Positions 33,257-35,236 of a stretch of DNA of 64,000 nt are shown piece after piece. This DNA comes from Eledone cirrhosa (taxonomy: Eukaryota). The stretch spans positions 1 through 64,000 of the forward strand of contig CAXHJY010001286.1 in NCBI GenBank assembly GCA_964016885.1. The letters are read 5' to 3'. The notes under the pieces were generated by a model that worked only from the letters and a program-made list of their open reading frames with translations, did not search any database and was not told the origin of the DNA. The position numbers and the translations under genes are program-made. Position 1 is the first letter of the stretch. Each line of letters begins with the position of its first letter.

Positions 33257-33469
33257 ATATATATATATCTTTTTTTTTTGGTTTGTTGGTTCACCACTGG
33301 ATAGAACTGGTCATTCCGTATGGTCAATCCTGGTGTAATATTGTGAAGAGTACTCAACGCAGTGCAGTTCACCCATCTTCGTTTGTGTAGGTGGTGGTGC
33401 GAATACGGAGTTAATTATAAATAAAATAAAATAACAGGAGGCTGGACTGGTGTAAATCCTTGGAAGGTT

Positions 33470-33538
33470 TATTATACTATGATCATTTCAATGACCGGGT
33501 TCCATATGAATCCGGTGATATCATCAAGTATTGGAATA
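33470..33538 (-). ncRNA. Hammerhead motif, family C (CTGATGA mutated to TTGATGA, probably inactive)
   Basis: Inverted copy of 34584-34652. Its only difference is at position 33527, in the core. Confidence 0.65.
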
Positions 33539-34583
33539 TAACAAAGGAATACTAACCACTGGGACTTTAAAATAATTTTGGTCTATTTGCACTTTTCATT
33601 GGGTTGTTACCTTCGACTTGTGTGGTGGCTTTTCCCGGCTGCGCGCTGGGCACTCGGAAAGTTCAGCTTTCCTTGAGTGCTCGGAAAAATAAATTTCTCC
33701 TCTTTCGGTAAACGAAATTACTCGGAGCGGTATTTGCTCCGCTCCCACCGCGCCGCCTGTTTTGGCCGCCATATTATACTTATACCTATAAACTCCAGGT
33801 TTAGGCATAACTATTAGCTCTATCATGCCTCTACTGGCACGTAAATAAACCCCTCATGTGTGATTTAATAGTATTCGTTTGGTATAGACGATGGCCTGTC
33901 GAAATTTTGGAGTTCCCGCTAGCGCTCCCGGGGCCTAAGGTAGCTACGTTCCTAAAGTACTCGGAAAAATTAATTTCCATTTCTTTCGCTGGACGATACC
34001 ACTCGAGACTGGCTGACTTATGGTGGGGGTGGGGGGTGCTGGCTGGGATTCCCAATCGAAATCTTTACTCTATATCCCATCCTAATATCTTATCGAGCTA
34101 AATGTTTTCATATAAGACTCTCTCCGTAAGTTCATTAAATAAATAAATCTCGCTACCTTAACCTTTAATTCTCTAATAACTTATTTTTCAATTTATCATT
34201 TTGAAATTTAATCTTTTTAATTTAATTTAATTTCATCCTATAACTCGCAACATAAGTTTAACGTTCCAATCTTCGGTTCACACATTAGACCCTACAGACA
34301 CCCATTATAGATTCTTTGGAGTAGCATTTTTTCGCGGCTTTTTCTAGCATGAATATAGTGTGACCCTTACGCTGACTTATTTCTCCCTTTCTTTCTTCCC
34401 CTTTTTCTTTGACGGAGAGGTGGTAGTGCATTATAAGCCTTCGCTCCCTCACCAGATGTTCATTAGTAGATTCAGTTCCCACCACTTTGGGGGCGACTGG
34501 CCGAGCAGCTAGTTGGTCAGTCGTCCTCTTTGTCTCTGTCTCTGATTTTTCGGACCCATGGTTGTTTACATATTCCTTTGTTA

Positions 34584-34652
34584 TATTCCAATACCTGATG
34601 ATATCACCGGATTCATATGGAACCCGGTCATTGAAATGATCATAGTATAATA
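34584..34652 (+). ncRNA. Minimal type I hammerhead ribozyme motif, family C (core intact)
   Basis: TATT(cca)ATAC-CTGATGA(34595-601)-stem II ACCGG/CCGGT with inner TTC/GAA-GAAA(34633-36)-palindromic TGATCA-TA-GTATAATA. AATAAA overlaps the 3' end. The base of stem II is imperfect. Confidence 0.72.
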
Positions 34653-35236
34653 AACCTTCCAAGGATTTACACCAGTCCAGCCTCCTGTTATTTTATTTTA
34701 TTTATATATATATATATATATATATGAATGTATTTATAGAGTTATAAATGTATAGATAGATTTATACTTGTGTATAACTTCTAACCAAGAGTTGAAAACG
34801 CGAAACAAAATGTCTGAAATGTGAAAGTATGGCGTCTTAATAGCGATGCTTAACATTTGTAGGATTCTTTAAATGAAACAAGATCTAACCTCCATATCAA
34901 TTAGACAATATCATTTGTTAACTATATCTCATAAGTGCTTTTTTTAATTGATGTCAGATATATTAATTTGCCAATAAATATATAACTATACACAGTCGAC
35001 ATTCCACACGTCACATTCGTTACTATATAATATAATATATGATTTGATATACATAACAAGAAAATAATTATCTTCTTTATTTTGATATTCAATTCTTAAG
35101 CATTCATATGACTTCGGATGTAAATACATAAAAACAAAAATGAGTTTTGTCATCTTTCCACATGCGGTGCTAATGTTTTATATCAAAAGAAAACAAACAA
35201 CTTAGTACATTCCAGTATCTAGGTATATATATATAT

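Follow-up and report, generated by a model that had tools for sequence, protein, structure and literature searches.

Penelope-like elements (PLEs) leave insertions of a recognizable build: they are 5'-truncated and often carry at the 5' end an inverted copy, itself 5'-truncated, which results in flanking inverted repeats; a tail of 30-40 bp lies at one end, and (TA)n serves as the target in several clades (PMC8557442). Microsatellite or (TA)n targets characterize the Hydra, Naiad and Neptune PLEs, and in Penelope-13_HM, of the Hydra clade, the inverted copy comes with a hammerhead on each strand (PMC8557442 Files S1/S2). The purified protein of an Anolis PLE cuts and extends both strands of its target; reverse transcription proceeds from two internal sites of the RNA that delimit the tail, and cleavage by the ribozyme is dispensable (PMC11167929). 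The anatomy of the minimal hammerhead ribozymes (min-HHRs), and their occurrence as pairs on opposite strands, have likewise been described (PMC4209133).

Here we analyse a locus in a window of 64,000 nucleotides, that is, the whole stretch of DNA considered (Eledone cirrhosa, contig CAXHJY010001286.1, positions 1 to 64,000). The insertion at 33280-34706 is probably of the PLE type: a sense piece that is 5'-truncated adjoins an inverted duplicate of the element's 3' end, and (TA)n flanks the whole. In having such a duplicate at its 5' side it resembles Penelope-13_HM (PMC8557442) and, in its inverted repeats, the Drosophila virilis Penelope, which has them at its termini (PMC2377424), and it shares with the EN+ PLEs a hammerhead on each strand near the ends, (TA)n, 5' truncation and a one-sided extension. 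Unlike the EN+ PLEs, as those sources present them, this copy has no ORF, its tail measures ~139 nt against 30-40, 1 kb of non-coding sequence precedes the ribozyme, stem II is longer with a C.C mismatch, and there is no sequence match to the elements listed. The architecture is already known for PLEs, the departures from it being the ~139-nt tail and the 1-kb non-coding stretch. With the Anolis element Poseidon PAc it has in common two 3' ends past the hammerhead, an AT-rich target and a template that was apparently uncleaved; however, the PAc ORF starts inside the hammerhead, whereas here three frames all stop within it or just after (PMC11167929). As in the metazoan PLE min-HHRs of PMC4209133, we find the core, a 4-bp helix I, a long helix II, a palindromic helix III and pairs on opposite strands; departing from the account there, the G10.1-C11.1 pair is lacking, the two ribozymes lie 1.1 kb apart rather than ~100-700 bp, and one copy has C3U. 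Non-LTR retrozymes (PMC7229834; 10.64898/2026.07.22.740005) also possess a type I hammerhead, lack a protein and probably depend on PLEs, but the present unit is not tandem, exceeds 1.3 kb, bears a minimal instead of a canonical ribozyme and is of inverted build. None of nine motifs of the family had a match in the supplement of PMC8557442. We found no description of the family in the papers searched, and it may already be catalogued in Repbase, Dfam or the published octopus repeat libraries.

Anatomy of the insertion and its hammerhead motifs

The features of the locus, and of a relative in the same window, are as follows.

33257..33279, no strand: left-end (TA)n plus T10, the T10 being replaced by (TA)n in other copies
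33280..34706, + strand: whole insertion, revised; inverted long-ended 3' piece plus 5'-truncated sense piece, between (TA)n tracts
33280..33415, - strand: one-sided 3' extension (tail) of ~136-139 nt, running on from the left arm in other copies
33416..33551, - strand: left arm, which repeats the 3' end region in inverted orientation
33474..33531, - strand: minimal type I hammerhead, likely impaired by C3U at position 33527; predicted cut at 33478
33551..33558, no strand: inversion and 5'-truncation junction, placed with contigs of other copies
33552..34570, + strand: interior, non-coding and multi-copy; likely a pLTR/UTR region in function
34571..34706, + strand: right arm, the 3' end region in sense orientation with the short end; family copies run into it from the interior without a break
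34591..34648, + strand: minimal type I hammerhead with intact core and palindromic stem III; U.U at 10.1/11.1 and a C.C mismatch in stem II
34649..34654, + strand: AATAAA, candidate poly(A) signal, with its mirror at 33468-33473
34704..34724, no strand: right-end (TA)n tract, likely the target
57030..57245, no strand: older relative of the same short-end/long-end build, its arm facing left and its tail right, with (TA)n on both sides

The arms are identical at 135/136 positions without a gap, just as an earlier note on this DNA had reported, and their sole mismatch falls on hammerhead core position C3 (TTGATGA in the left arm, CTGATGA in the right). The same note had placed the left boundary at 33416 and the size at 1.3 kb. 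This boundary has to be given up, since four contig pieces from other copies bridge 33416 and family copies enter (TA)n at ~33271-33279: the unit reaches ~139 bp left of 33416, to about 33280, and the insertion measures ~1.43 kb. It is asymmetric, in that the tail extends the left arm and is absent from the right, and its termini, at 33280 and 34706, do not form an inverted repeat. On checking for a target-site duplication, both element ends were found to sit in (TA)n, which is present at either side. No direct (tandem) pLTR was seen in this copy.

In the right arm, stem I (34591-34594 with 34645-34648) encloses CTGATGA (34595-34601), stem II (34602-34632), GAAA (34633-34636) and an 8-nt palindrome forming stem III (34636-34643), and the predicted cut follows A34644. 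The left hammerhead mirrors this on the minus strand, so that both face outward, and the right one lies in sense orientation 59 nt from the short end, as expected of a Penelope-like pLTR. The min-HHR core (CUGANGA, GAAA, UH) is intact in the right arm and carries C3U in the left, and the short helix I, long helix II and palindromic helix III conform to the min-HHR shape. The G10.1-C11.1 pair, which is highly conserved in min-HHRs and stands outside the published descriptor, is replaced by U.U; counted by eye, 14 of the 25 families of the Hydra clade likewise have U.U at 10.1/11.1 (PMC8557442 File S2). Judged by its sequence, the arm motif matches the published min-HHR type. Thus, the earlier picture of an outward hammerhead followed by AATAAA in each repeat holds for both sites and for their orientation, but only the right core is intact. 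A role of AATAAA as a poly(A) signal finds no support: there is no poly(A) at the right end, and other copies have (TA)n in place of the T10 on the left.

The left ribozyme is likely impaired because its mismatch affects core C3, by analogy with the Anolis PLE ribozyme, in which C3G abolishes cleavage (PMC11167929); that mutant is C3G, not C3U against G8. At this base, 141/159 RAD reads (run X7, see below) carry C, whereas contigs of run X1 mostly have U, with C amounting to 23.6 of a depth of 1,100 at 33527. This depth is under 1% of that in the mirror arm (181,606 at 34618), and U3 is therefore a minor variant. The hammerhead is predicted to cut only as a dimer held by the palindromic stem III. 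In read-through RNA of either strand, 57-58 of the 58 ribozyme bases are predicted to pair with the far arm.

A search of Rfam yielded 0 matches at the gathering score and no hammerhead at E up to 10; nine weak matches to other families up to that E-value were taken as chance. The minimum-energy fold differs from that of the ribozyme (z -0.2 to -0.8, ribozyme strand). A strict hammerhead descriptor, composed after the motifs had been seen, found five matches in the 64-kb window as against 0 in each of 300 shuffles. Besides those in the arms, five motifs of the same build occur (2178+, 6209+, 10980-, 30858- and, near 11045+, one that has decayed). When the seven window motifs were aligned, 91.8% of cells were paired and 11/16 pairs had changed on both sides; 0/500 shuffles reached the covariation score, and slid controls paired at 34-46%. 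This set comprises about four independent lineages and the structure was drawn from the same motifs, and hence we treat the covariation as support rather than proof. In all seven, the fourth position of stem II is a C.C mismatch, and a covariance model scan recovered only its seven training motifs. Seven hammerhead motifs per 64 kb suggest a very high number genome-wide.

With curated Pfam cut-offs, protein families were detected in none of the 127 frames of the window (0/9 over the element, 0/118 elsewhere), in agreement with the earlier statement that the interior has no ORF for an RT, endonuclease or transposase; two word-based protein searches with the tail frames likewise gave 0 matches, scoring 0 of 6 and 0 of 1 candidates. 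Three protein matches from a profile-free scan (filamin and two tandem-repeat products) were discarded as repeat-summed noise. A 135-aa antisense frame (34288-34692) was also rejected as a gene, having no curated Pfam match and no Atlas match above 0.77, and being broken in other copies by frame-breaking indels. CpG is kept in the first 800 bp of the interior (observed/expected 0.9-1.3), and a degenerate 85-bp direct repeat is found at 33642-33724 and 33921-34005 (75% over 57 nt). The interior also has motifs that we take to be TATA-, E2F- and YY1-like; together, the CpG content, these motifs and the 85-bp repeat hint at a promoter region in the sequence. A 30-codon frame with its ATG at 34558 passes through the hammerhead (window 34540-34650), and in other copies a pyrimidine tract and CAG, missing from this one, directly precede that ATG; this arrangement is possibly a splice acceptor with a short upstream ORF. 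Associated with the 85-bp repeat are a hairpin at ~33648-33680 and, in one X1 contig, a strand-switch joint at 33697-33733. Metagenome contigs had 0 matches to an interior motif and 0 to an arm motif.

A multi-copy family with excess 3' ends and variable junctions

Four of nine listed sequencing runs of related samples (X1, X4, X5 and X7, the last being RAD) were aligned to 33262-35000 at 80% likeness. The best run shares 0.40 of words with this region, and the flank at 34770-35000 is essentially uncovered; given this word share and the lack of flank coverage in every run, organism A may not be the species of the window and may instead be a relative of it. The runs show neither the junction of this copy nor an empty site. 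The interior is multi-copy, its summed depth in X1 being 2,584-23,121 as compared with 0-1 in the flank at 34770-35000, although summed contig depth is not a copy number. Summed arm peaks exceed the median depth of the interior by roughly 85-fold in X1 and 44-fold in X4, and 33262-33435 is likewise far deeper than the interior (44,144-163,733). Toward the 3' end, depth within the interior climbs clearly in X4 (rho 0.94), with a weak rise in X1 (rho 0.47, p 0.057); X7 has no such gradient, its depth tracking restriction sites. The arm excess of 44-85x and these rho values indicate frequent 5' truncation, with depth as a rough measure. Taking the longest pieces of X1, whose median depth is 12, as single copies would give in rough terms ~600 interiors and ~50,000 arms.

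Among the 24 pieces listed (of 4,094), four bridge 33416; they come from organisms A and B and represent other copies, as their identity of about 87-98% implies. They are 33299-33490 and 33308-33454 in X1, and 33298-33479 and 33323-33426 in X5. At 33271, 33275 and 33279 the family reads A, i.e. (TA)n where the present copy has T10. In addition, 32 X1 contigs stop at 33416 with a TA-like loose end. Thus, the family has two 3' ends, 59 and 198 nt beyond the predicted cut, of which the present copy bears the short one at its right side and the long one at its left, and (TA)n is found both at the two ends of this copy and in the loose ends of others. A pile of 409/611 X7 molecules ending at 33416 was dropped as evidence of an element end, because the begin and end piles checked (6 of 8 listed) fall on AATT or CATG and this pile hence reflects restriction ends.

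The inner junction (33551/33552) is bridged by 0 of the 24 listed pieces, and three of these (X4 record 10, X5 records 20-21) start at 33558 and have 29-87 other letters upstream, whereas the right arm is joined to the interior in an X4 record (34506-34619). The inner inversion junction appears private to the copy at 33280-34706. Other left-right joins occur in four X1 contigs (33327-34628, 33374-34536, 33454-34652 and 33453-34570), each join being represented by one contig and three of them having just 25-28 letters on the short side. An inverted 5'-truncated copy is accordingly seen in three settings: at 33280-33551, at the breakpoints of these four contigs, and in the relative at 57030-57245. 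For the latter, either score was reached by 0/500 shuffles, and the relative of the tail lies at 57178-57235.

The divergence of the arms, 1 in 136, has a 95% interval of 0.02-4%. Should the rate implied by PMC13282606 apply (distance 0.09 = 25 My), the insertion would be about 1 My old, and up to about 6 My. The arms resemble each other more than this copy resembles the family majority, and they share family-rare alleles at 34659/33463, where 352/357 and 625/669 X7 reads differ; this fits a single template lineage, a species-specific subfamily or arm-to-arm conversion. The recent origin proposed in the earlier note is consequently likely in view of the single difference, but the interval extends to 4% and conversion between the arms could mimic youth.

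Further repeats accompany the insertion in the window. A palindrome at 10906-11120 consists of two outward minimal hammerheads separated by hardly any interior, of which the right-hand one has decayed (GAAA to AAAA). It repeats the build of the insertion but belongs to another family, of which more minimal hammerheads lie at 6087-6327, 2170-2232 and 30804-30866; the hammerhead at 6209 is flanked by 63-bp inverted repeats. A second family has the 3' half of a hammerhead only (6333-6430, 10174-10335, 14032-14191, 33195-33256, 35346-35466 and 58453-58629): it keeps GAAAC, a long palindromic stem III and GTC, with the CUGANGA half in 0/6 copies. In three of these copies the sequence folds back within the presumed stem II or close to it; (TA)n forms the end of most copies, and all six break at a similar point. 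At 32927-34706, three unrelated repeats are stacked with (TA)n between them (32946-33080, which is 80% like 13821-13949; 33195-33256; and the insertion at 33280-34706), and this looks like one microsatellite targeted repeatedly. Diverged SINE-like copies (70-80%), of a repeat that we assume to be cephalopod-like, are present at 7892-8117, 13029-13250, 24905-25096, 31422-31557 and 52354-52461, and by masking ~54% of the window is simple repeat, including kilobase (TA)-rich arrays.

Alternative origins of the insertion

The dot plot of the locus is that of a MITE or TIR transposon (PMC8969392), and near-perfect inverted repeats, the missing ORF and TA-rich ends would all suit a DNA transposon whose terminal repeats had captured a hammerhead or resemble one by chance; internal deletions of MITEs likewise yield variable junctions and surplus ends. 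However, in contrast to such elements as that source depicts them, the repeats are non-terminal and the family is skewed to one end. The unit continues for 139 nt past the left repeat, its true termini are not inverted repeats, other copies link the interior to the right arm only, the arms outnumber the interior 44-85-fold, and the ribozyme stems covary. Copies running from the arm into the tail already contradict this origin, which we consider improbable. Equally improbable is the addition of an inverted arm to an ordinary truncated copy at a later time, through template switching, DNA repair or misassembly at a single locus. The runs leave both the junction and the flank uncovered and the arms are closer to each other than to the family majority, as such an event would have it, but this build is seen again at 57030-57245 and in four contigs of X1, and the left piece contains a tail that the right piece lacks and so is not a simple local copy. 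DIRS-like elements, which use a tyrosine recombinase, are retroelements that do have inverted terminal repeats; since the arm matches nothing in the interior (no internal complementary region), no recombinase is detected with Pfam and the ends are asymmetric, we regard a DIRS-like origin as next to negligible.

The PLE-type insertion also has points against it: the searches linked neither an RT nor a GIY-YIG sequence to the family, the tail is ~139 nt and not 30-40, the 3' gradient in X1 is weak and the G10.1-C11.1 pair is absent. The insertion behaves like one of PLE type, and the family is a putative member of the PLEs. The preference of the earlier note for a retroelement with inverted pLTRs over a TIR transposon or MITE is nevertheless supported, with the amendment that the arms are not equivalent, differing in the tail, in C3U and in an apparently private junction.

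If the insertion is of the PLE type, two parent elements come into question. One, to which we would give a little less than an even chance, is an autonomous PLE, Hydra- or Neptune-like, whose 3' end was cut off just past the ORF, so that the interior is pLTR/UTR. Longer copies have at least 29-87 extra letters upstream of 33558; these are A/C-rich, and one frame could by eye stop at 33553-33555. The pyrimidine tract, CAG and ATG ahead of the ribozyme in family variants recall the Penelope intron that ends at helix I, and Hydra PLEs, one of which is known from Octopus, target (TA)n. On the other hand, there is no protein match, 1 kb from the end of an ORF to the hammerhead is long in comparison with Hydra elements of under 3 kb in total, and the hammerhead of Hydra-1_Obim differs in sequence. 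The other, a credible candidate that we do not favour, is a non-autonomous, long, retrozyme-like pLTR derivative using a PLE protein. A stretch of at least 1.1 kb that lacks coding signal would suit such a derivative; compared with the 57-kb copy, the tail frames have no synonymous bias (2/10 changed codons, by eye), and both pLTR-bearing non-autonomous PLEs and a PLE origin of retrozymes are in the literature. Yet the known retrozymes have units of ~300 bp with canonical hammerheads, and the tandem units of ~300 bp expected of them are absent here, where a single inverted pair with a unit of over 1.3 kb was found.

Proposed route of insertion and its meaning

The protein behind the PLE-type insertion is likely a Penelope-like RT/GIY-YIG enzyme encoded elsewhere in the genome. 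By analogy with the Anolis PLE protein (PMC11167929), its endonuclease would nick both strands of a (TA)n target. Each nick would then prime reverse transcription on the element's RNA, from either of two start sites that lie downstream of the hammerhead. The cDNA begun at the distal site may have halted after ~272 nt and that begun at the proximal site after ~1,155 nt, whereupon the two would have been joined back to back. The inverted repeat would in this scheme be a by-product of insertion rather than an end bound by a transposase. Since the predicted cut site lies within both pieces, the template was likely uncleaved or religated RNA. The resulting copy is likely inert, since it has no ORF, one of its cores is mutated and in any read-through transcript the ribozyme is predicted to be buried in a 136-bp duplex.

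A bolder view of the family, which we hold to be rather unlikely, is that of a long, protein-free hammerhead retroelement that routinely inserts from two ends, with cDNA primed from each target strand. It would entail RNA start sites ~139 nt apart and a genomic complement on the order of 10^4-10^5 ribozyme ends beside hundreds of long copies. If this were true, palindromic pseudo-MITEs of every size would be expected, down to two back-to-back ribozymes, and a part of the annotated 'MITE/TIR' and palindromic repeats in such genomes would be retro-insertions; the spectrum of junctions would then be a large natural record for testing two-strand priming by PLEs. How the inverted repeats and tails of PLEs form is listed as unresolved in PMC8557442, and should long tails and routinely two-ended insertion prove general genome-wide, the family would offer a direct test of their formation. 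The locus itself is a clean case of a known annotation trap, in which a PLE-type insertion resembles a MITE.
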